Assembly (NCBI GenBank): GCA_036517115.1
Contig: DATDYB010000010.1
Location: 1-57,701, forward strand
Direction: 5' to 3'
Origin: Minisyncoccota bacterium
Lineage (GTDB): Bacteria > Patescibacteriota > Minisyncoccia > Phycocordibacterales > PALSA-1337
DNA length: 57,701 bases
Shown here: one piece after another, positions 9,500 to 57,461 of the stretch
Layout: each line of letters starts with the position of its first letter
Position numbering within the stretch: position 1 is the stretch's first letter
The notes under the pieces: generated by a model
Database searches by the model: none
What the model saw: the letters and a program-made list of their open reading frames with translations, nothing else
What the model was told of the DNA's origin: nothing
Made by a program: the position numbers and the translations under genes

Positions 9500-11368
9500 A
9501 TGCTAAAAAAAGAATACTCAATTGAGATCGGCGGGAAAATGTTGACAGCGGAATTTAATAACTTAGCGGAACGCGCACACGGATCGGTACTTGTGAAATA
9601 TGGCAACACCACGATCCTCGCTACTGCCGTGATGTCGACAAAGTCCAAGGAAAGTGGAGATTTTTTCCCGCTCACCGTTGACTTCGAGGAAAAATTTTAT
9701 GCAACAGGAAGAATCCTAGGTTCCCGCTTCGTACGAAGGGAGGGGAAGCCGTCCGACGAAGCGGTGCTTTCCGGCCGTATCGTCGACCGAACCATTCGCC
9801 CGCTCTTTGACCAGTGGATCCGACACGAGACGCAAGTCATCATCACCGTGCTCTCAATTGATGAAGAGGATCCTGATGTGCTGGGGGTTATCGGCGCTTC
9901 GCTCGCTCTCGGCGTGTCCAACATTCCCTGGAATGGACCGGTTGGAGCAATCCGTATTGGAAAAATAAAAGGGCAGAATGATTTTATCTTAAATCCCACC
10001 TACGCGTGGCGAGATACTCCCGATCTGGAATTTGAACTCGTAGCCTGCGGTCAACACGGGACTATCAACATGGTTGAACTCGGAGGCAACGAGACGGTTG
10101 AATCGACGGTCAGCAAAGCTCTTGTGCTCGCAGCAGAGGAAATTTCAAAGCTTCAAAAATTCCAGGAGACTATTATTAAGGAGATCGGCGTTCCTAAACG
10201 CTCTATACCACAACAAGTCATATCAAAAGAAGCAACAACACTTTTTGAAAAAGAAATCGCACCAAAAATGGATGAATACGTTTTCACCGGTATTCCAGGC
10301 GACTCAAAGATTTACGAGCTTAAAGATTTGTGGCTTGCGGTGTTCGAAAAAGCTTTGCCGGAAGAACACCGAGCGCTCGCGGAAAACTTTTTTGAAGAAA
10401 AAGTAAACGCTCTTATTCACCACGAAGCGGTTCTCTCGGGCAGACGTCCCGATGGCCGCGGCACCGACGACATCCGTCCGCTCTATGCGCAGGCCGGCGG
10501 CGTTTCCTCAATCCTTCACGGTTCAGGTATTTTCTTCCGTGGACAAACTCACATCCTCTCCGTCCTTACACTTGGTGGACCGCAGGATGTACAGCTTATC
10601 GAAGGAGTGGGGGAGGAAGAAAAGAAACGTTTCATGCACCATTACAACTTTCCTCCCTTTTCAACCGGAGAAACAGGGAGAACAGGGGCGAATCGTCGCA
10701 TGATCGGCCACGGCGCACTGGCAGAAAAAGCGCTTGCCCCTATGATCCCTTCACAGGAAACTTTCCCATACACTATCCGACTTGTTTCGGAGGCGCTGTC
10801 CTCCAACGGATCGACTTCTATGGCCTCCATTTGTGGCGGCACTTTGGCACTTATGGACGGTGGTGTACCGATCAAAAAACCTGTGGCAGGAATTTCTTCC
10901 GGTGTAATGATCGTTGACGAAAAAAATTACAAGGTACTTACCGACATTCAAGGACCAGAAGATCATTTTGGTGATATGGACTTCAAAGTAGCTGGAACAC
11001 GTGACGGTATCACCGCCATCCAAATGGATGTAAAAGTGAAGGGTATCCCTGTTTCGATTCTTACAGAAGCATTTGGGAAAGCGAAGATTGCTCGTCTCGC
11101 CATTCTTGATGTTATCGAATCAGCGATTAAAGAACCACGGAAAAGTCTCTCTTCTCATGCACCAAAAATCATCAGCATGACCGTCAAACAGGATCATATC
11201 GGACTCGTTATCGGACCAGGAGGGAAAACGATTAAAACCATCATTGAAAAAACAGCCGTTCTAGGCATCGACATTAACGACAATGGCATCATCCTCATCA
11301 CCGGCAAGAACGGTAGTGCAGAGAAGGCAGAAGCCATTATCAAGACTATGGTAGGGAACAGAGACTGA
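9500..11368 (+). CDS. pnp: polyribonucleotide nucleotidyltransferase (PNPase), ends after the KH domain
   Basis: Two RNase PH-like domains (GRILGSRF.., RRPDGR, HHYNFPPFSTGE, GHGALAE, NGSTSMA) and a KH domain (IGLVIGPGGKTIKTI). No S1 domain precedes the stop. Confidence 0.93.
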   Translation: MLKKEYSIEIGGKMLTAEFNNLAERAHGSVLVKYGNTTILATAVMSTKSKESGDFFPLTVDFEEKFYATGRILGSRFVRREGKPSDEAVLSGRIVDRTIRPLFDQWIRHETQVIITVLSIDEEDPDVLGVIGASLALGVSNIPWNGPVGAIRIGKIKGQNDFILNPTYAWRDTPDLEFELVACGQHGTINMVELGGNETVESTVSKALVLAAEEISKLQKFQETIIKEIGVPKRSIPQQVISKEATTLFEKEIAPKMDEYVFTGIPGDSKIYELKDLWLAVFEKALPEEHRALAENFFEEKVNALIHHEAVLSGRRPDGRGTDDIRPLYAQAGGVSSILHGSGIFFRGQTHILSVLTLGGPQDVQLIEGVGEEEKKRFMHHYNFPPFSTGETGRTGANRRMIGHGALAEKALAPMIPSQETFPYTIRLVSEALSSNGSTSMASICGGTLALMDGGVPIKKPVAGISSGVMIVDEKNYKVLTDIQGPEDHFGDMDFKVAGTRDGITAIQMDVKVKGIPVSILTEAFGKAKIARLAILDVIESAIKEPRKSLSSHAPKIISMTVKQDHIGLVIGPGGKTIKTIIEKTAVLGIDINDNGIILITGKNGSAEKAEAIIKTMVGNRD

Positions 11369-11410: not shown

Positions 11411-11481
11411 ATGACAATTCCGATTGTCATCCCCGCGGATGCGGGGATCCAGAACTGGATTCCCGTTTTCACGGGAATGAC
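11411..11481 (+). repeat. multi-hairpin palindromic (REP-like) element, intergenic copy
   Basis: ATGACAAT-tccg-ATTGTCAT, CCCCGC-ggat-GCGGGG, ATCCAG-aa-CTGGAT, TCCCGT-tttc-ACGGGA, then ATGAC. Homologous to the element inside mutM (56416-56490). Confidence 0.8.
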
Positions 11482-11516
11482 AGCAAACTACCATCTTACA
11501 TTTTTAGTTTTTAAGT

Positions 11517-12840: not shown

Positions 12841-13019
12841 CCATCGAAAATTTTCAACCCCGAGACGCTTACCTTCACCACTCATACTCACTTTTCTTTA
12901 CGGAAAATGGACAACTCCCTCTGGTCGGTCCTTCGTCAAACCTCAGGACTGAATCCATTTTCCTAAAAAGTTCGGTGAGTGGCAGAAGGTGAGCTATTTA
13001 GGTTGAAAATTTTCGATGG
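12841..13019 (+). repeat. nested-hairpin element copy A (~179 nt)
   Basis: Outer arms CCATCGAAAATTTTCAACC / GGTTGAAAATTTTCGATGG. Conserved CCCGAGACGC, ACTCACTTTTCTTTACGGAAAATGGA...TCCATTTTCCTAAAAAG and CTATTTAGG. Confidence 0.85.
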
Positions 13020-13084
13020 ATTCGCCTGACGAAAAATTAGTTCTTAATTTTGCCTTTTAATCTTCGAATTGTTATCATTGTCTC

Positions 13085-19504: not shown

Positions 19505-19687
19505 ACTACTTCACAATTTTTCAACCCCGAGACGCCTATCTTCGCAAAGCTACAGTGTTTTTCTTGACGGAAAATGGACAACTCCCTCCGGTCGGCCCTT
19601 CGGAGACTCAGGACTGAATCCATTTTCCTAAAAAACTCCCTGCTTTGCAGAATTTAGGCTATTTAGGTTAAAAAATTGTGAAGTAGT
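19505..19687 (+). repeat. nested-hairpin element copy B
   Basis: Outer arms ACTACTTCACAATTTTTCAACC / GGTTAAAAAATTGTGAAGTAGT. Same conserved core as copy A. Confidence 0.85.
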
Positions 19688-19738
19688 TCGTCCTCCTCGA
19701 CCAAGCGATCCAGGATCCAGTTTGTCGTTGGAGCGAGC

Positions 19739-19912
19739 CCATCAAAAAATTTCCACCTAAACAGTGAGCATTCTGCAAAGTAACGAGCTTTTTAGGAAAA
19801 TTGGGTTGTGTGAGCTTCTCCATTCTGATGGAGGGCGAGTTCCCAATTTTCCGTAAAGAAAAGTGAGTGTACTTTGTGAAGGCGAGCGTTCGGGGGTGGA
19901 AATTTTTGATGG
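19739..19912 (-). repeat. nested-hairpin element copy C (inverted relative to B)
   Basis: The reverse complement reads CCATCAAAAATTTCCACC-CCCGAACGC...ACTCACTTTTCTTTACGGAAAATTGGG...CCCAATTTTCCTAAAAAG...GGTGGAAATTTTTTGATGG. Confidence 0.85.
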
Positions 19913-28180: not shown

Positions 28181-28591
28181 ATGAAAATGGGCAAAACGGA
28201 ATGGCACTTTCTTATCGGTGCGGCGGTCACGGTGGACCTCATGCAAGCTATGCTTGATTTCTTCGGCATTGGCCTCGTCATTAATCGTTTTATTGATATT
28301 GTTGTAGGCATGGCGTTACCCTTCTACCTTTCCATCCGCGGAGTAAAAATGACCGGTAGGCGTGTCGGAAGCATCATCGGCGCCTTTATTCTAGAGGAAA
28401 TACCTGGCATCGATGCATTACCTTTGTGGACAGCCGACGTACTATATATATACGCCACAGTTAGAGCGGAAGAAAAGGGAGAAGAAGTCAAAAAAGCAAC
28501 TTTAGACAAAATCAAATCGATCAAAAAACCGAATTTTGATCACAAAAGAGAGGATAACACCCTCAATCTTAGAGAGTCGGAAGTGGAGTAG
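28181..28591 (+). CDS. small three-TM membrane protein
   Basis: Hydrophobic helices and operon context. Confidence 0.6.
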   Translation: MKMGKTEWHFLIGAAVTVDLMQAMLDFFGIGLVINRFIDIVVGMALPFYLSIRGVKMTGRRVGSIIGAFILEEIPGIDALPLWTADVLYIYATVRAEEKGEEVKKATLDKIKSIKKPNFDHKREDNTLNLRESEVE

Positions 28592-28595
28592 TAAA

Positions 28596-28706
28596 AGCGC
28601 TCCGCAATCGGGCAAAAAAGAGACCGGATAATTTTTCTGGTGAAAAATTTCCTAGGACTCCGCGCCGCCGCGCTACGTAGTCTCTTTTTTGCCCGATTGC
28701 TGCGCT
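28596..28706. repeat. long hairpin (27-29-bp imperfect arms) enclosing a motif shared with the tRNA-Lys locus
   Basis: Arms AGCGCTCCGCAATCGGGCAAAAAAGAGAC (28596-28624) / GTCTCTTTTTTGCCCGATTGCTGCGCT (28680-28706). The loop motif GGATAATTTTTCTGGTGAAAAATTTCC..CCGCGCCGCCGCGCT recurs at 52529-52580. Confidence 0.75.
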
Positions 28707-28803
28707 CTACGACTGAGCTGCTGCAGGGGTTCGAGAAAAGTTTGTTGCTTCGCGCGCTTTATTAACACTTTCTCCACAGCATAGTGTGGTAAAATAGCCA
28801 TTA

Positions 28804-29829
28804 ATGCTAACACTATTCTTTAAATCTACAACGATAGTGTTCCTCTTTGCGGCAATGATTGGGATTGCCCATGCACAGTTTCAAATCCCCAACTCTGCCG
28901 CCGATGTGGCAATCTCCATAAGTCCCTCAAGCCCACGACCTAACCAAGAAGTTACTATTTCTTTACATTCAAGCGCGATTGACCTCAATAACGCCACAAT
29001 ATCTTGGTATCTTAGCGGCAAGCTTTTAAAGCAGGGAATTGGACAGAAAACCACAACGGTTACCACTTCTTCGACTGGGGGTGCCGCTCTTGTTGAAGCA
29101 GTGATGCGCACCAAAGAAGGCGTCACCGTACGCAAACAAATTTCCATCAAGCCAGCTGAAGTGGACCTGATATGGGAAGCGAACACCTACACACCGCCTT
29201 TGTACCGAGGCAAGGCCCTCTTCACCCCGCAAGCAAGTGTACACATTGTCGCTATTCCTCATCTCACCAACCAAAGCGGACAGAAAATCGATCCTGCCAC
29301 CCTTACATATACCTGGAAGCAGGACTCTAGAATCTTGGGCACGGAATCGGGTCGAGGCAAAAGTAGTCTATCTGTCCGAGGCACTATGCTACTCAAACCT
29401 TTAGTGGTGAGTGTAGAGGTAACGAGCCCCGACAGCACTCTTTCTGCTGCGGATAGTATTGAGCTCGATGCCTTGAATCCTACAGTCTCTGTCTACACCG
29501 ACAATCCTTTGTACGGAATCTTGTATAATAGAGCACTCCGGGACACCTTCAGGCTTGAAGGCAACGAGTCGAGACTCATTGCCGTTCCGTTTAATTTTTC
29601 TGGAAAAAGTCGAAACGCTTCCAACCTTTCCTATAACTGGAGCGTGAACGGGGAAGATGCTTCGTACGATCCAGCAGACCCGAGCACCATCACTCTTCGT
29701 CACGAAGGAGAGGGGAGTGGAAACTCCATCGTTTCTGTCTCCGTTGGAAACACGCGAGAGATTATGCAGAAAACATCGGGCCGATTCGAAGTATTCTTTG
29801 GAGGTATGACGAAAACTCCATCTTTTTAA
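28804..29829 (+). CDS. secreted hypothetical protein
   Basis: Signal peptide (TIVFLFAAMIGIAHAQ) and a beta-rich sequence. Confidence 0.65.
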   Translation: MLTLFFKSTTIVFLFAAMIGIAHAQFQIPNSAADVAISISPSSPRPNQEVTISLHSSAIDLNNATISWYLSGKLLKQGIGQKTTTVTTSSTGGAALVEAVMRTKEGVTVRKQISIKPAEVDLIWEANTYTPPLYRGKALFTPQASVHIVAIPHLTNQSGQKIDPATLTYTWKQDSRILGTESGRGKSSLSVRGTMLLKPLVVSVEVTSPDSTLSAADSIELDALNPTVSVYTDNPLYGILYNRALRDTFRLEGNESRLIAVPFNFSGKSRNASNLSYNWSVNGEDASYDPADPSTITLRHEGEGSGNSIVSVSVGNTREIMQKTSGRFEVFFGGMTKTPSF

Positions 29830-33429: not shown

Positions 33430-33437
33430 GGTTGGTA

Positions 33438-33466
33438 AGTGTAAAGTTAAAAGTGAAAAATGTAAA
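33438..33466 (-). promoter_or_regulatory. conserved promoter cassette (TTTACA-17-TACACT) abutting the rpmH ATG
   Basis: The -35 is at 33466-33461 and the -10 at 33443-33438, with 8 nt to the ATG. The spacer sequence is shared with the cassettes at 49326 and 56782. Confidence 0.55.
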
Positions 33467-33635
33467 GTTAAAAAAATATTTCTGTGTTATAGGTTTCCAG
33501 TGCAGGTTTTAAGTTTTCCACAGGCTGTTCACACATTATAAACATATTCGTATGTTTTACACAAGTTCTATAAAATTTTAATCGGTATATACTATAAATT
33601 AATTACTCTCTTTAATTTTAACTAATACGTTTCAC

Positions 33636-39078: not shown

Positions 39079-39109
39079 GTGAGTTTATAGTAGCATAAAA
39101 AAACACTCA

Positions 39110-39285
39110 CACAACACCAAAATTCTTTCCCGAACGCCGTCATTCACAGTACATACTCACTTTTCTTTACGGAAAATTTGGAACTCGCCCTCCATCCGAA
39201 TGTAGAAGCTCACACAACCCAATTTTCCTAAAAAGTTCGTTGTACTGGAGAATAACAGCTATTTATAAAGAATTTTGGTGTTGTG
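39110..39285 (+). repeat. nested-hairpin element copy D
   Basis: Outer arms CACAACACCAAAATTCTTT / AAAGAATTTTGGTGTTGTG. Core closest to copy C. Lies between divergent PBP1A and tyrS. Confidence 0.85.
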
Positions 39286-39329
39286 TTCACTTTCACCTTT
39301 GAGAATTTTTATGTTACATTTAGGGCATT

Positions 39330-40541
39330 ATGTCATGGTTTAAAAGCCAAAAAATAGATACAAGTCCGGAAAAAATTGATGAGCTCCTCACTCGTGGCGT
39401 GACAGAGGTTATTGAGCACGATCATTTACGTCAGCAATTATTGTTGGGTAAGCAGCTTCGGGTGAAACTTGGTATTGACCCGACCAGTCCTAATATTCAC
39501 ATAGGGCGGGCGGTACAGCTTTGGAAACTGCGGGCATTTCAGGAACTCGGTCACCATGTAGTTCTCATTATTGGCGACTTTACAGGAATAATTGGCGATA
39601 CTTCCGATAAGGAATCAGAGCGGCCGATGCTAACCGAGGAACAGATTGCAGAAAATCAAAAAACGTACTTCGAGCAGGCATTTAAAATTTTAGACAAATC
39701 AAAAACTGAAACCGCCTACAACTCCACCTGGCTCGGGAAATTAGGATTTGCCGAGATTGGAAAATTAGCAAATGTGTTCGGTCTACATGAGTTTGAGGCG
39801 AGAGAAAATATTGCCATACGTCTCAAAGCGGGGAGACGTGTGTCTCTACGCGAACTGATGTATCCTCTAATGCAAGGCTACGACAGCATCGTGGTCAAGG
39901 CGGATGTAGAGCTTGGTGGGACCGACCAGCGTTTCAACCTGCTCGCAGGGCGCACTATGCAGCCGGTGTATGGCCAGAAACCGCAAGATATTGTCATGAC
40001 TGTACTTATGGAAGGTACTGATGGCCGTAAAATGTCATCTTCGTGGGGGAACGTTATCAATATTCACGATGAACCTAATGATATGTTCGGTAAAGTGATG
40101 TCGGTGCGGGATGATCTTATTGTGAAATATTTTTTGTTAGCAACTCGGTTAGACCAAAAAGAAATTCAAAAAATCGAAAAAGAATTAAAGACCACTAATC
40201 CACGCGACATAAAAATTCGATTGGCACGAGAAATTGTGACGCTCTATCATGGAAAGGAAGCGGCCGAGCGGTCAGCAGCAAATTTTGAGAACACCTTTAA
40301 AAAAGGTGGAGTACCAGAAGATATTAAAGAAATTGCTGTGCCAAAAGATACTCCACTGGTTGATGTTCTGCTTCAGACTGGTCTGGTAGAATCGAAATCT
40401 GATTTTAGACGCTTGGTGGGAGAAGGGGCGGTGACGGTTCATGGAACGGAGGTTAAAATTACCGACCCGAATATTAAAATAACCGAAGCAGTCACCATAA
40501 AAATAGGTAAGAGGAGATTTATTAAAATCACTGTGAACTAA
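39330..40541 (+). CDS. tyrS: tyrosine--tRNA ligase
   Basis: HIGH-type motif (SPNIHIGRAV), KMSSS motif, and a C-terminal S4-like domain. Confidence 0.94.
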   Translation: MSWFKSQKIDTSPEKIDELLTRGVTEVIEHDHLRQQLLLGKQLRVKLGIDPTSPNIHIGRAVQLWKLRAFQELGHHVVLIIGDFTGIIGDTSDKESERPMLTEEQIAENQKTYFEQAFKILDKSKTETAYNSTWLGKLGFAEIGKLANVFGLHEFEARENIAIRLKAGRRVSLRELMYPLMQGYDSIVVKADVELGGTDQRFNLLAGRTMQPVYGQKPQDIVMTVLMEGTDGRKMSSSWGNVINIHDEPNDMFGKVMSVRDDLIVKYFLLATRLDQKEIQKIEKELKTTNPRDIKIRLAREIVTLYHGKEAAERSAANFENTFKKGGVPEDIKEIAVPKDTPLVDVLLQTGLVESKSDFRRLVGEGAVTVHGTEVKITDPNIKITEAVTIKIGKRRFIKITVN

Positions 40542-40546
40542 CAAAA

Positions 40547-40590
40547 AACCCGCTTGGCCGACCGGAAGGTTTGGGCAAGCGGGTTTTTTG
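40547..40590. terminator. bidirectional terminator
   Basis: AACCCGCTTG...CAAGCGGGTT flanked by A6 and T6. Sits between convergent tyrS and the acidic small ORF. Confidence 0.8.
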
Positions 40591-40824
40591 TTAGTTCCAT
40601 CCTTCTGCTTCAAACATTTCGGTCTCGTCATCATCAAGCGATTCATCGATTGTATCTGGAGTAACCACTTCTTCCTCTTCGATTTCTCCTTCATCTACTC
40701 GCATAAAGGGTATTAAACCCTTTGTTTCGTCTTCACTCGGACGCTGTGTGAAATCAGAATTTCCCACGCGCTCCTCGCTAGCCGAAATAAAATTCCCTCT
40801 TTTTGTGTTCATGATTTCATCCAA
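40591..40824 (-). CDS. small highly acidic hypothetical protein
   Basis: 77-aa ORF with a D/E-rich C-terminus and a terminator immediately downstream. Confidence 0.45.
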   Translation of the reverse strand: MDEIMNTKRGNFISASEERVGNSDFTQRPSEDETKGLIPFMRVDEGEIEEEEVVTPDTIDESLDDDETEMFEAEGWN

Positions 40825-41438: not shown

Positions 41439-41966
41439 CTATTCTGCATTAGTGAAGACTTCTTGCACCTCATCGTTATCCTCAAGGTCTCCAATGAGGG
41501 CTTCGAGTTTTGATCCATCTTCCGCATTTAAAGGAATCGTCGTTTGCGGCTGCCATCCCTCACGGGTTTTTTGGAATGCCCACGCGGCGCTTCCAATACC
41601 CGCCAACTCACATCCATGTTTCGCGAGAATAGCTTTTACTTCTTGAGCCGCTTTGTTGCGATTGTCAGTCAATGCTTCGATGATAATCGCAGCTCCTCCC
41701 GGTCCATATGATTCATATGTTACCGCATCCATAACAGCGCTGGTGTCGGTTGCACGTTTGATTGCTCGGTCGATAGTGTCGTTAGGCATGTTATTCTCTC
41801 GAGCTTTTTCAACCGCTGCTCGAAGACCAGGTGCGGTGAGATCACCGTTTGCTTTCTTGGCCTCAACGGCAATCATGCGCCCCATCTTGGTGAAAATCTT
41901 ACTCTTCTGCGCATCCGTTTTCGCCTTAATATGCTTTATTTTTGAATATTTATTATGTCCGGACAT
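41439..41966 (-). CDS. yebC: YebC/PmpR-family protein, short form
   Basis: MSGHNKYSKIKHIKAKTDAQKSKIFTK..YESYGPGGAAIIIEALTDNRNK..DEVQEVFTNAE. About 60 aa of the usual middle domain are missing. Confidence 0.85.
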   Translation of the reverse strand: MSGHNKYSKIKHIKAKTDAQKSKIFTKMGRMIAVEAKKANGDLTAPGLRAAVEKARENNMPNDTIDRAIKRATDTSAVMDAVTYESYGPGGAAIIIEALTDNRNKAAQEVKAILAKHGCELAGIGSAAWAFQKTREGWQPQTTIPLNAEDGSKLEALIGDLEDNDEVQEVFTNAE

Positions 41967-41998
41967 ATAAGGAAGTTTAAAATTAAAAGTGTAAAGTT

Positions 41999-43021
41999 TT
42001 ACAAAAGTTTTTCTTGTAGATTTGCCGGTACTGAAATACCGAGGTGGGTATAGCCATGATGCGTGACGACGCGACCACGGGACGTGCGCTCGATGAAGCC
42101 TACTTGGAGAAGGTAGGGTTCATTGAACTCTTCGATGGTGCCTTCTTCCTCAGAGAGGGATGCGGCAAGGGTGTTCAAGCCTACTGGGCCGCCGCTGAAC
42201 TTTTTAATCACCGTTTCAAGAATATTACGATCAGAGAGCGTCAGACCTTTATGATCAACACCGAGAAGAGAAAGTGCCTCGTGTACGATCGTTTCCGTTA
42301 GTTGGGTTTTTTTAACTTGCGCGAAGTCGCGACAGCGCTTTAAAAAATAGTTGGCAGTGCGGGGGGTAAAGCGACTTCGTTTGGCGATTTCAGTTGCAGC
42401 CGCTTCGTCAATCGTTACACCGAGGATCGCGGCGGAACGTTTGATAATCTCTCGGATTTCGTTTTCTGTATAGAACTGGAGTCTGAAAATGCCACCTGAA
42501 AATCGGGATTGTAGCGGAGAGGAAAGGAGGGAAATCCTCGTTGTTGCGGCAATCAGAGTGAATGCCGGCAATTCAAGCTGAATCGTTCTTGCTGACGGAC
42601 CTTTTCCGATGATGATATCGAGTGAGCCTGACTCCATGGCAGGGTAGAGTACTTCTTCGATGGTTTTGTTGAGACGATGGATCTCATCAATAAAAAGAAT
42701 ATCTCCAGGGGAAAGGTTGGTGAGGATCGAAGCAAGATCACCCACCTTTTCAATGGCCGGTCCTGAAGTGATTTTGATTTGGGCACCTGTCTCTTTGGCG
42801 ATGAGGTGGGCGAGGGTGGTTTTACCTAGACCTGGTGGACCGTAGAAAAGAATATGTTCAGGGGGATGGTTGCGTTCCTTCGCGGCTGTCAGAAGAATGT
42901 GAAGATTATTTTTTATTCCCTCCTGGCCGATATAATCGTTCCATTTGGATGGACGCAGTGTGTAATCAAGGTATTTTTCCTCATTTTGCGCGGTCTCTTT
43001 TTTTACTACACCTGATTCCAT
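41999..43021 (-). CDS. ruvB: Holliday junction branch migration helicase RuvB
   Basis: LRPSKWNDYIGQE, GPPGLGKTTLA, FIDEIHRL, and a winged-helix C-terminus. Confidence 0.95.
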   Translation of the reverse strand: MESGVVKKETAQNEEKYLDYTLRPSKWNDYIGQEGIKNNLHILLTAAKERNHPPEHILFYGPPGLGKTTLAHLIAKETGAQIKITSGPAIEKVGDLASILTNLSPGDILFIDEIHRLNKTIEEVLYPAMESGSLDIIIGKGPSARTIQLELPAFTLIAATTRISLLSSPLQSRFSGGIFRLQFYTENEIREIIKRSAAILGVTIDEAAATEIAKRSRFTPRTANYFLKRCRDFAQVKKTQLTETIVHEALSLLGVDHKGLTLSDRNILETVIKKFSGGPVGLNTLAASLSEEEGTIEEFNEPYLLQVGFIERTSRGRVVTHHGYTHLGISVPANLQEKLL

Positions 43022-49308: not shown

Positions 49309-49325
49309 TTGTCTTTTTCTGTCGC

Positions 49326-49354
49326 TTTACACTTTTCACTTTAAACTTTACACT
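49326..49354 (+). promoter_or_regulatory. conserved promoter cassette (TTTACA-17-TACACT) abutting the holA ATG
   Basis: The -35 is at 49326-49331, the spacer CTTTTCACTTTAAACTT, and the -10 at 49349-49354, with 7 nt to ATG49362. Confidence 0.55.
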
Positions 49355-55800: not shown

Positions 55801-56775
55801 TTACTTCTGGTGCGTATCACAAAAATGTGCGCTACGACCACCCACGATCATCCTGCGAATAGTACCCATACAGCCTTTTTTCTCGCAGTGCTTTCCTGTT
55901 TTACGATACGCGTGGTGTTTCGTCTGAAATTTTCCGGGCTCTCCATAAGGGTTGCGGTAGTCGGACATTGAATCTCCTTGAAAATCAATGCCTTTTTTAA
56001 GTACGGTTTTTGCGGCAACAAAAAGCTTCTTCATTTCAATCTCTTTGATGTTACGTACAGGACGCAACGGGTGAATTCCCGCGATCCAAAGTGCTTCATC
56101 GGAATAAATATTACCGATACCGGCAATGAGGGACTGATCCATAAGTACTTGTTTGATTTTCCCATTCAGTCTTTTCTTTAATTGAAAATTGAAAACTGTA
56201 AATTGAAAATTCTTCTCCAGAGGTTCCGGCCCCAAGTGTGCGAGATCAGTGCTCAAGGAGAGGGTATCGGTGGGGAGGTAACACACCTTCGCAAACTTCC
56301 GCATGTCTGAGAACGCCAAATGTTTACCGTTTGATAGGGTAAACACCAATCTAATAAATCGGTTGAACGGATCCTTCAGTGGCCCATCTTCAATCGCTTC
56401 CCATTCTTCTCTTCTGTCATTTCCATGAAAACGGAAATCCAGTCTGTCTGCTCTGGATCCCCGCCGCGGGGATGACGGGGCATTTGCTCTTCCATATTTC
56501 CCATAGAGCAAATGTCCCGTCATTTTCATGTGAATAAGGACAGTGATATTGCCGGAGAGATTCACAAGCACGTTCTTTCCACGCCTCGTCACGTCTTTGA
56601 TCTTCTTTCCAGTTACCACTTTTTTAAATTCCCCAAAGTATTTGAGATTCTTGATATTACTTTTACCATTATGAAAAACACTGTTGTACCCGGACCACAC
56701 ATCACGAATAACAAGTCCTTTGATGAGCTTGTCTAATATCGTCGCTGTTGTGTGTACTTCAGGGAGTTCGGGCAT
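55801..56775 (-). CDS. mutM: formamidopyrimidine-DNA glycosylase with in-frame palindromic-element insertion
   Basis: MPELPEV N-terminus, RRGKNVL, H2TH region (MDQSLIAGIGNIYSDEALW), and a C-terminal zinc finger (CEKKGC...HFCDTHQ). The extra segment RANAPSSPRRGSRADRLDFRFHGND is encoded by 56416-56490. Confidence 0.9.
   Translation of the reverse strand: MPELPEVHTTATILDKLIKGLVIRDVWSGYNSVFHNGKSNIKNLKYFGEFKKVVTGKKIKDVTRRGKNVLVNLSGNITVLIHMKMTGHLLYGKYGRANAPSSPRRGSRADRLDFRFHGNDRREEWEAIEDGPLKDPFNRFIRLVFTLSNGKHLAFSDMRKFAKVCYLPTDTLSLSTDLAHLGPEPLEKNFQFTVFNFQLKKRLNGKIKQVLMDQSLIAGIGNIYSDEALWIAGIHPLRPVRNIKEIEMKKLFVAAKTVLKKGIDFQGDSMSDYRNPYGEPGKFQTKHHAYRKTGKHCEKKGCMGTIRRMIVGGRSAHFCDTHQK
56416..56523 (-). 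repeat. multi-hairpin palindromic element inside mutM plus flank-derived 19-bp hairpin
   Basis: Core GTCAT..TTCCATGAAAACGGAA-ATCCAG..CTGGAT-CCCCGCCGCGGGG-ATGAC (56416-56476). Arms ATGACGGGGCATTTGCTCT (56472-56490) / AGAGCAAATGTCCCGTCAT (56505-56523) match 18 of 19. The latter arm encodes the conserved MTGHLL. Confidence 0.8.
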
Positions 56776-56781
56776 GAGGAA

Positions 56782-56810
56782 AGCGTAAAGCTAAAAGCGA
56801 AAAATGTAAA
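56782..56810 (-). promoter_or_regulatory. conserved promoter cassette (TTTACA-17-TACGCT) abutting the mutM ATG
   Basis: The -35 is at 56810-56805 and the -10 at 56787-56782, with 6 nt to the ATG at 56775. Confidence 0.5.
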
Positions 56811-56825
56811 ATAGCAAAAATATTT

Positions 56826-57209
56826 TCACATTCCTACACTATTTCTTTCAAGCCATGATGCTGTTTCTTCGATCGAGACTTTTTTCGTTGCAATTTTTAA
56901 TACAAAATCAACCATCTCTCGGTTAGAGACTTTGAGTGAGTACCCGTTTAAGTATAAAAAACGTGCAGCCGAAGCAATGCCGGTGCGTTTGTTTCCGTCC
57001 ACGAAGACATGGTAATTGACGATTGCTTCAAATAAAATCGCCGCTTTTAGGAATAGTCCTTTGTATAAATCTTTACCTGCAAAACTAGACTGTGATTTGA
57101 GTGCGGCGGATTTCAGTAATCCAATATCTCTAATACCGTGAGTACCCGTAGTCGCGTCAATAATTCGAGCGTGGATTATGAGAATATCTTTTGGGTCGAG
57201 ATACTTCAT
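56826..57209 (-). CDS. doc: Doc (death-on-curing) Fic-family toxin
   Basis: The Fic motif HVFVDGNKRTG in a 127-aa protein, paired with an upstream antitoxin. Confidence 0.9.
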   Translation of the reverse strand: MKYLDPKDILIIHARIIDATTGTHGIRDIGLLKSAALKSQSSFAGKDLYKGLFLKAAILFEAIVNYHVFVDGNKRTGIASAARFLYLNGYSLKVSNREMVDFVLKIATKKVSIEETASWLERNSVGM

Positions 57210-57218
57210 CTTAATTTA

Positions 57219-57461
57219 TTATTTATCCGCGAGTTCTTCAAGGGCAGGGCGGTATTCGTTAATGAATTTGTCAGTCCAACCGAGGAGTTCTTTGTCTACA
57301 ACGGTTGACTCAGACTTCTTTATTTTCTTGATGATCTTTATCTCAAAAGGAGAAGAAATTGTTTCTATTTCATCTTCCATCCCAATCATCGCGATCTCAC
57401 GGTCTTTTTTTGTGAGCGTTACTCCCACAGAAGATCCTATTTTTATGAGTTTTTGAGCCAT
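57219..57461 (-). CDS. AbrB/SpoVT-type antitoxin (Phd-equivalent)
   Basis: KIGSSVGVTLTKK is an AbrB-type motif. 80 aa, ending 9 nt upstream of doc. Confidence 0.8.
   Translation of the reverse strand: MAQKLIKIGSSVGVTLTKKDREIAMIGMEDEIETISSPFEIKIIKKIKKSESTVVDKELLGWTDKFINEYRPALEELADK

Follow-up and report, generated by a model that had tools for sequence, protein, structure and literature searches.

Small nucleases of the GIY-YIG type, designated Ssn, bind and cut, as single-stranded DNA, the hairpin repeats known as NTS and SRM (PMC11893778, Nat Commun 2025;16:2388). The Neisseria Transformation Sequence (NTS) is CGTCATTCCCGCGMAVGCGGGAATCYRG and contains the older dRS3 repeat. The Ssn-related motif (SRM) is a degenerate motif that was defined in the same paper, with the published consensus HGTCWYN(0-2)YYVSBRHN(0-5)WNVSBRGN(0-2)RNCYNB. 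SsnA of Neisseria meningitidis cuts single-stranded DNA a few nucleotides upstream of the repeat, and only 2% of the NTS of that species are situated inside genes; Rickettsia is among the genera that are rich in SRM (PMC11893778). The present report concerns a contig of 57,701 nt from an uncultivated groundwater bacterium (Minisyncoccota/Patescibacteria), the whole of which is referred to below as the window. It contains two inverted doublets of hairpin units that are assigned here to the NTS/SRM repeats. One of these, designated copy A, is intergenic, between pnp and the next gene. The other lies in frame inside mutM, where it is joined to an inverted copy of neighbouring mutM codons.

The likeness of the window repeats to the NTS/SRM resides in the oriented head (C)GTCAT, in a GC-rich stem of 5–7 bp with a short loop, and in the tail ATCCAG. 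It extends to the occurrence of inverted pairs with variable spacers and to the existence of related loci in which ssn genes are flanked by repeats. The mutM copy differs from the described repeats, however, in being intragenic, in frame and degenerate, and in being accompanied by an inverted copy that appears to have been templated on its flank. The host differs as well, in that the Patescibacteria (Candidate Phyla Radiation, CPR) are not mentioned in PMC11893778, and the window is devoid of ssn.

The insert in mutM

The mutM (fpg) gene occupies positions 55801–56775 on the minus strand and encodes an intact protein of 324 amino acids, with Pfam matches to Fapy_DNA_glyco and H2TH. In the orthologue alignment, the PELPEV catalytic N-terminus and the C-terminal zinc-finger residues are invariant, as are M85, T86, G87 and H88, while L89 and L90 are shared by at least 90% of 46 orthologues. 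The peptide RANAPSSPRRGSRADRLDFRFHGND (residues ~96–120) begins eight residues past the invariant HMKMTGH motif, and is encoded by 75 nt (56416–56490, minus strand) that are in frame and contain no stop codon. The edges of this insert are ambiguous by 3 nt, AGA being present at both junctions.

A first-pass annotation, made from the sequence alone, had described an intact MutM with 25 extra residues, encoded in part by an element shared with positions 11411–11481, and had supposed the insertion to be specific to the lineage or strain. The observation of the insert is confirmed, and the closest orthologue, which is syntenic (83% amino acid identity), does lack the element.

When read on the minus strand from 56490 to 56416, the insert has the layout AGAGCAAATGCCCC GTCAT CCCCGCGGCGGGG ATCCAG AGCAGACAGA CTGGAT TTCCGTTTTCATGGAA ATGAC. 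The first SRM/NTS unit, GTCAT CCCCGCGGCGGGG ATCCAG (56453–56476, minus strand), is degenerate by alignment to 11426–11452, its loop being short by 3 nt. A spacer, AGCAGACAGA (56443–56452, minus strand, as aligned to copy A), separates it from the second unit, CTGGAT TTCCGTTTTCATGGAA ATGAC (56416–56442, minus strand), which is in the inverse orientation and shows three private GC→AT transitions in the alignment. The core of the insert, from GTCAT to ATGAC, is identical at 50 of 56 positions to 11426–11481 in copy A, which lies at a distance of 45 kb. It departs from copy A by a 3-nt deletion in the first loop, by 8 additional nucleotides in the spacer and by 3 substitutions, so that the units themselves differ from those of copy A only by the loop deletion and the three transitions. 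Copy A is a canonical SRM doublet (11425–11482), with one unit on the plus strand (11425–11452) and one on the minus strand (11455–11482), separated by 2 nt. No third copy of the element was found within the 57.7-kb window.

Short-read assemblers can misjoin at repeats, and the insert might on that ground be regarded as an assembly chimera at a hairpin-rich repeat. Thirteen contigs, however, encode the identical 324-amino-acid MutM, and the three places shown represent three independently assembled ENA samples; the DNA of the insert is identical between loci L002 and L003, the frame is kept and no stop codon is present. The recurrence of the same sequence in independent assemblies indicates that the insert is not an artefact, and a chimera must be considered extremely improbable. 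Copy A was found on 10 contigs with identical PNPase (polynucleotide phosphorylase, the pnp product), the four places shown being four samples. No empty-site allele was observed among the contigs with identical MutM or identical PNPase, i.e. both copies are fixed.

Identity of the element

The published SRM consensus is matched twice in the window, by the two units of copy A, as compared with 0.13 matches in 100 shuffles. The mutM units miss the consensus, unit 1 only through its shortened loop. All four units of the window possess the oriented flanks GTCAT (5′) and ATCYRG (3′), in the form GTCAT/ATCCAG, and these flanks are likewise present in approximately 140 copies from other genomes.

A search with the pattern CCCCGCG..GCGGGGATCCAG, in one genome per species, revealed at least 120 loci in many phyla. 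A metagenome scan with the second unit was also performed, and its counts are those of the matches listed and represent lower bounds. The matches listed from the search of one genome per species derive from the Alpha-, Beta- and Gammaproteobacteria, Planctomycetes, Cloacimonadota, Omnitrophota, Bdellovibrionales, Magnetococcales, Gemmatimonas and Patescibacteria. Among the matches listed, nearly all have GTCAT directly 5′ of the hairpin, and in most of them an inverted partner, CTGGAT–hairpin–ATGAC, follows 4–70 nt downstream; across the family, the spacers between paired units range from ~4 to 70 nt. Judged by these motifs and their arrangement, the element is an inverted doublet of a 27-nt unit, GTCAT–hairpin–ATCCAG, that is, an NTS/SRM repeat of the Neisseria dRS3 family. 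The element is not an undescribed one, the unit being the NTS/SRM repeat of the Ssn system (PMC11893778). At the Rfam gathering thresholds only a tRNA was detected, and no known RNA family covers the element.

The length and sequence of this part of the protein are hypervariable in the MutM family, and it could be argued that an ordinary loop of ancient variability accounts for the 25 residues, that its likeness to a repeat is coincidental or convergent, and that no mobile DNA was inserted. The match to copy A, however, includes both hairpins and both oriented flanks, the unit is common to hundreds of loci in unrelated phyla, and the closest orthologue is without the element. Almost no weight can be given to that interpretation.

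Two other classes of repeat were considered and rejected. The REP, BIME and REPIN families are also short, oriented palindromes with a conserved non-palindromic head; they form inverted doublets and arrays and are recognized as single-stranded hairpins. The head of every copy here, however, is GTCAT and not GTAG, REPs are extragenic by definition, and the neighbouring enzyme is a GIY-YIG nuclease, which has no covalent intermediate, rather than a Y1 RAYT transposase of the IS200/IS605-like type. Membership was rejected on the basis of the head and of the adjoining gene. For a miniature inverted-repeat transposable element (MITE) with a target-site duplication, the candidate duplication would be AAATGAC (56517–56523 and 56416–56422, minus strand), which encloses ~31 nt of conserved native codons and for that reason cannot be such a duplication. 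The two mutM units act as inverted termini, and no consistent target-site duplication is present in the other copies.

Many of the doublets at other loci (L136, L143, L161, L201, L235, L237 and others) are situated at the centre of longer palindromes with conserved outer arms (TGATGGTCTCGTAAAAAGTC ... GACTTTTTACGA..CCATCA), indicating that SRM pairs can be the core of larger, MITE-like units. Dense BIME/NIME-like arrays of several SRM variants were observed on some contigs, as were other hairpins nested in some of the loops (L134, L203, L223; L147, L225–L227).

An inverted copy of mutM codons

Adjoining the doublet is a segment (56472–56490, minus strand; AGAGCAAATGCCCCGTCAT) that is an inverted copy of the native codons for MTGHLL, and its last 5 nt are the GTCAT head of unit 1. 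The native arm, ATG ACG GGA CAT TTG CTC T (M T G H L L; ATGACGGGACATTTGCTCT), is located at 56505–56523 (minus strand), in the invariant HMKMTGH motif, and the fold-back loop between the two arms (56491–56504, minus strand) comprises 14 nt of native codons, (Y)GKYG. The 19-nt copy of the adjacent codons that was reported at first pass is thereby substantiated, as the two segments are reverse complements at 18 of 19 positions. Hairpins with arms of at least 19 nt, no more than one mismatch and a loop of no more than 30 nt were found at 3 loci in the 57.7 kb, and by our own calculation for this length and composition the chance expectation for such a hairpin is ~3e–4. Folding of the region as single-stranded DNA gave –30.3 kcal/mol (z = –6.35). 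In the sense of the inverted copy, GCAAATGYCCCGTCAT was absent from every other locus fetched.

The sole mismatch between the arms is in a glycine codon, which is GGG in the inverted copy, as in four of five orthologues, and is now GGA in the native arm. Retention of GGG suggests that the copy was probably made from an older mutM sequence, with one substitution since. The inverted segment is real and, from its sequence, is taken to have been templated on mutM. Microhomology, AGAG/CTCT, is present at the fold-back junctions, and the SRM head with its usual 5′ cytosines, CCCCGTCAT (CCGTCAT), is exactly complementary to ATGACGGGG (ATGACGG), the invariant Met-Thr-Gly codons 33 nt upstream. It is this complementarity that sets the mutM site apart, and it may have seeded a template switch.

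This arrangement resembles the template switching at quasi-palindromes of the Ripley model, studied in Escherichia coli, in which one arm of an imperfect inverted repeat serves as the template for lengthening or perfecting the other; at mutM, such copying would account for the 14 inverted nucleotides between the microhomologies AGAG/CTCT and GTCAT/ATGAC. The classical cases alter a few bases in an existing quasi-palindrome, whereas at mutM 14 nt or more would be new and fused to a mobile repeat, an event that is reconstructed from a single sequence.

It had been suggested, from mutM and from two further places in the window (11411–11430 and 28596–28706), that a hairpin-primed or template-switch process underlies the insertion of these elements and regularly makes an inverted duplicate of the flank, so that a fold-back would mark every insertion. 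At both copies in the window there is indeed a hairpin with GTCAT at the end of its 3′ arm, of 19 bp in mutM and of 8 bp at copy A, where ATGACAAT tccg ATTGTCAT (11411–11430, plus strand) is formed against the head. The 5′ flank of SRM is also unstable in general: partial direct tandem duplications (at least 12 nt, flank plus GTCATYCCCGC) were found 5′ of 7.2% of units, as compared with 0.8% of control GTCAT sites, and SsnA cuts within this same flank. In the catalogue of 321 SRM units at 240 other loci, however, not one fold-back of at least 10 nt ending at GTCAT was found; two of these units (0.6%) have a fold-back that reaches 8 nt, and both are explained by a neighbouring inverted unit.

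As for the two further places, the 8-bp hairpin at copy A is present as reported, but its origin from the flank cannot be shown. At the matching place in the relative L253 there is only gaaATGagc between a –10-like box and the downstream gene; the ATGA of the copy A hairpin may be native, the intergenic region of L253 being too diverged for proof. The inclusion of 28596–28706 was mistaken, since that region is intergenic, has no GTCAT or ATCCAG motif and is unrelated. The inverted repeat there (28596–28708) has 29-nt arms that are 90% complementary and 55 nt apart, lies between open reading frames (ORFs) 28181–28591 and 28804–29829, and copies no coding sequence. The expectation that fold-back would be a regular signature of insertion is not supported by the catalogue, which points instead to a local event at mutM rather than a trait of the family, and a process that leaves a fold-back at every insertion is judged unlikely.

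The 5′ partial duplications were seen as one or two copies, each consisting of ~9 nt of flank plus GTCATYCCCGC, i.e. the head and left stem arm only, at loci that include L040, L113, L116, L121, L184, L192, L206 and L254. They may be a footprint of SRM cutting or copying, and they fit a general fragility of the SRM 5′ flank.

Decay of the mutM copy

The loop of unit 1 has lost 3 nt, with the reading frame kept. The three substitutions in unit 2, relative to copy A, are all GC→AT transitions, the third of which breaks a base pair. At these positions, 123 of the 130 metagenomic copies listed carry C/C/G, like copy A, and T/T/A was seen only in mutM. It is apparent that the mutM copy is decaying and no longer conforms to the SRM consensus, which argues against a maintained hairpin function. 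Compensatory selection on unit 2 was considered and rejected in favour of AT-biased decay, all three changes being GC→AT and unique among the 130 copies listed.

A function could nevertheless be imagined for the extended hairpin, either in the regulation of mutM through an mRNA or DNA structure or as a preferred Ssn cut that turns mutM into a programmed fragile site. The predicted structure is, after all, very stable, as the z score given above attests, and base pairing is preserved at two of the three positions changed in unit 2. All of the substitutions are nevertheless of the type expected in neutral decay, one of them disrupts a pair, and part of the unit 1 loop is gone. The native arm has, moreover, diverged from its copy, and the structure is common to no relative. 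Retention of the hairpin for a function is accordingly regarded as quite improbable.

A tolerant loop in MutM and in-frame copies elsewhere

The stretch bounded by MTGH and FNRF is most often 32 residues long in 120 orthologues, the extremes being 19 and 77; in the window protein it has 56, and the modal form is without the insert. An AlphaFold2 model, built with 46 sequences, had a mean pLDDT of 91, and values of 46–50 were obtained only over residues 101–120. This low-confidence segment is situated between the strands at 94–96 and 125–127, and when the sequence is aligned to solved Fpg structures, the alignments are interrupted from query residue 88 to ~138. The insert is thus predicted to lie in a hypervariable, structurally tolerant and disordered surface loop of MutM. 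The surface loop envisaged at first pass agrees with the model, in which the insert appears disordered.

In L004, the syntenic sister lineage, another insert, of 33 nt and likewise in frame, occupies the identical codon junction (TATGRAAGA followed by GAAGAATGGGA). The core of that insert, AAAGTTAAAAATGAAAA, belongs to an A-rich repeat family, for which a pattern search gave 6 matches in the window as against 0.1 expected. Of five other inserts, from more distant orthologues, three fold as hairpins beyond shuffles (L245, z = –3.0; L247, z = –2.75; L248, z = –2.4), and the insert of L245, which shares its sample with the window, has an SRM-like tail, ATTCATGCGAATGAC, at its end. The repeat in L004 and the hairpin-forming inserts of the other orthologues indicate that the MutM loop gathers repeat or hairpin DNA repeatedly.

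The A-rich repeats, with the core AAAGTTAAAAGTGAAAA, are also found in intergenic positions of the window, at 33434–33481, 41963–42010, 49316–49354 (minus strand) and 56778–56825, the last of these being directly upstream of the mutM start. A peptide similar to the product of such a repeat, RKVKSEKQ, interrupts the PNPase of a relative.

SRM were also found in frame in Pfam-confirmed genes of low-GC contigs, namely those for an isoleucyl-tRNA synthetase (L144), a Type ISP restriction enzyme (L194), a MotA/ExbB protein and a DUF2162 transporter (both in L218) and a WecG glycosyltransferase (L244). Units or doublets are, in addition, in frame within long ORFs of L171 and L056.

The Rickettsia palindromic elements (RPE), reportedly described by Ogata et al. 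in 2000, are said to be short palindromic repeats that sit in frame in essential genes, adding a surface peptide while the protein remains intact. The mutM insert is similar in being in frame and free of stop codons, and in that the fold of the host protein is predicted to be kept (model pLDDT 91, with the insert as a low-confidence loop). The RPE differ, however, in being ~100–150 bp in length and specific to Rickettsia, whereas the mutM host belongs to the Patescibacteria, and the likeness noted is one of behaviour. As a description of behaviour, the parallel drawn in the first-pass annotation is a fair one. A link between RPE and SRM is possible, given that Rickettsia is one of the SRM-rich genera.

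Ssn genes and the proposed origin of the mutM locus

Four small GIY-YIG genes in the fetched loci have an SRM right behind the stop codon, and Ssn-like genes were found directly beside SRM repeats in L020, L088, L199, L209 and Candidatus Taylorbacteria (L254). Homologues of one such GIY-YIG gene are abundant in the Patescibacteria, including Candidatus Taylorbacteria of the Rifle aquifer. In Candidatus Taylorbacteria GCA_001822555.1 (L254), a gene for an Ssn-like protein of 94 amino acids has an SRM doublet directly upstream and a degenerate SRM-like sequence downstream. The closest named relatives of the window MutM and PNPase are from the Taylorbacteria/Paceibacteria. The Taylorbacteria gene lies inside a type IV secretion-like cluster (PrgI, TraC-like, TraG P-loop), and three SRM doublets are present in that 6-kb stretch; L254–L257 are the same contig across samples.

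The account that is considered rather probable is that a decaying NTS/SRM doublet occupies a tolerant loop of MutM and that the inverted copy beside it was templated locally. The doublet lies in the loop, where a length that is a multiple of three and a stop-free frame would have left MutM whole and so permitted persistence. Since its insertion it has been shortened by 3 nt and has acquired three GC→AT transitions. The 19-nt inverted copy would lie outside the mobile unit, as a by-product of the site chosen. With its AGAG end folded back onto CTCT, a nascent strand may have been extended along the native mutM arm, and could then have rejoined its template at the GTCAT microhomology. Such a process would amount to quasi-palindrome or hairpin-primed template switching, occurring either during insertion or later, as quasi-palindrome ‘correction’. 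Either Ssn, cutting a few nucleotides upstream of the head in the manner reported for SsnA of N. meningitidis, or replication stalling at the hairpins may have furnished the free 3′ end. The template-switch or hairpin-primed origin proposed at first pass is therefore retained as the best explanation for the mutM locus alone; as a general mechanism of insertion it is unsupported.

Several observations weigh against the account preferred here. No ssn gene was detected in the 57.7-kb window, either with a GIY-YIG motif regular expression or by tblastn with two Ssn proteins, which makes the presence of the nuclease in this genome conjectural. On the movement of SRM, PMC11893778 offers only an insertion sequence-like NTS-ssnA-NTS layout. 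The nearest orthologue, L004, is not empty at the insert site and, as no empty-site allele was seen, the order of insertion and fold-back cannot be read. In addition, the presence of a hairpin ending at GTCAT at both window copies (stems of 8 and 19 nt) contrasts with the 0.6% of other units that reach 8 nt; a lineage-specific fold-back rule could exist, beyond what two copies can reveal.

A broader speculation, to which only a low probability is attached, is that SRM/NTS repeats spread and remodel their surroundings by nuclease-triggered copy-choice. Ssn would cut just 5′ of the head, and the 3′ end so released would find microhomology, nearby or ectopic, on which to re-prime. The mutM fold-back and the frequent tandem flank duplications found across many phyla would be the footprints of this process, and in-frame colonization of tolerant loops its regular outcome, with the MutM loop as a hotspot in the Patescibacteria.

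Other features of the window

The window PNPase (9500–11368, plus strand) has 622 amino acids and is without the C-terminal S1 domain, which is present in nearly all of the orthologues listed (~705 amino acids) and is kept by L253, the closest PNPase relative (81% identity). The shortened pnp stops 43 nt before the SRM doublet region (copy A hairpin plus doublet, 11411–11482), which puts the repeat on the deletion scar or close to it. No promoter or terminator was revealed by scans of the surroundings of copy A.

Directly upstream of mutM are a gene of the Fic/Doc family (PF02661) and a preceding ORF of 80 amino acids (56826–57209 and 57219–57461, minus strand), which are conserved in L004 and look like a toxin-antitoxin pair. 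A repeat family of ~160–180 nt, 72–82% identical and MITE-type in appearance, is found in both orientations at 12847–13025, 19505–19687, 19732–19907 and 39109–39291. Two other strong hairpins were observed. One, at 1107–1169, is a near-palindrome with 31-nt arms at the very start of ORF 1106–1816; the other, at 40535–40597, has 25-nt arms that are 96% complementary, contains GGGTTTTTT and resembles an intrinsic terminator.

Implications

The mutM locus is a single, decaying copy of a kind of element that was already known, and it shows no sign of a new function. The results presented here do, however, place the Ssn/NTS hairpin-repeat system in the CPR/Patescibacteria, and they indicate that SRM repeats, which have been reported to be almost always intergenic, can sit in frame within housekeeping genes. 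The MutM loop, which has repeatedly accepted unrelated repeat or hairpin DNA among related lineages, is a natural test bed for the tolerance of proteins to insertions. As footprints, the fold-back and the 5′ partial duplications can be checked at little cost, and they may bear on how these repeats multiply.

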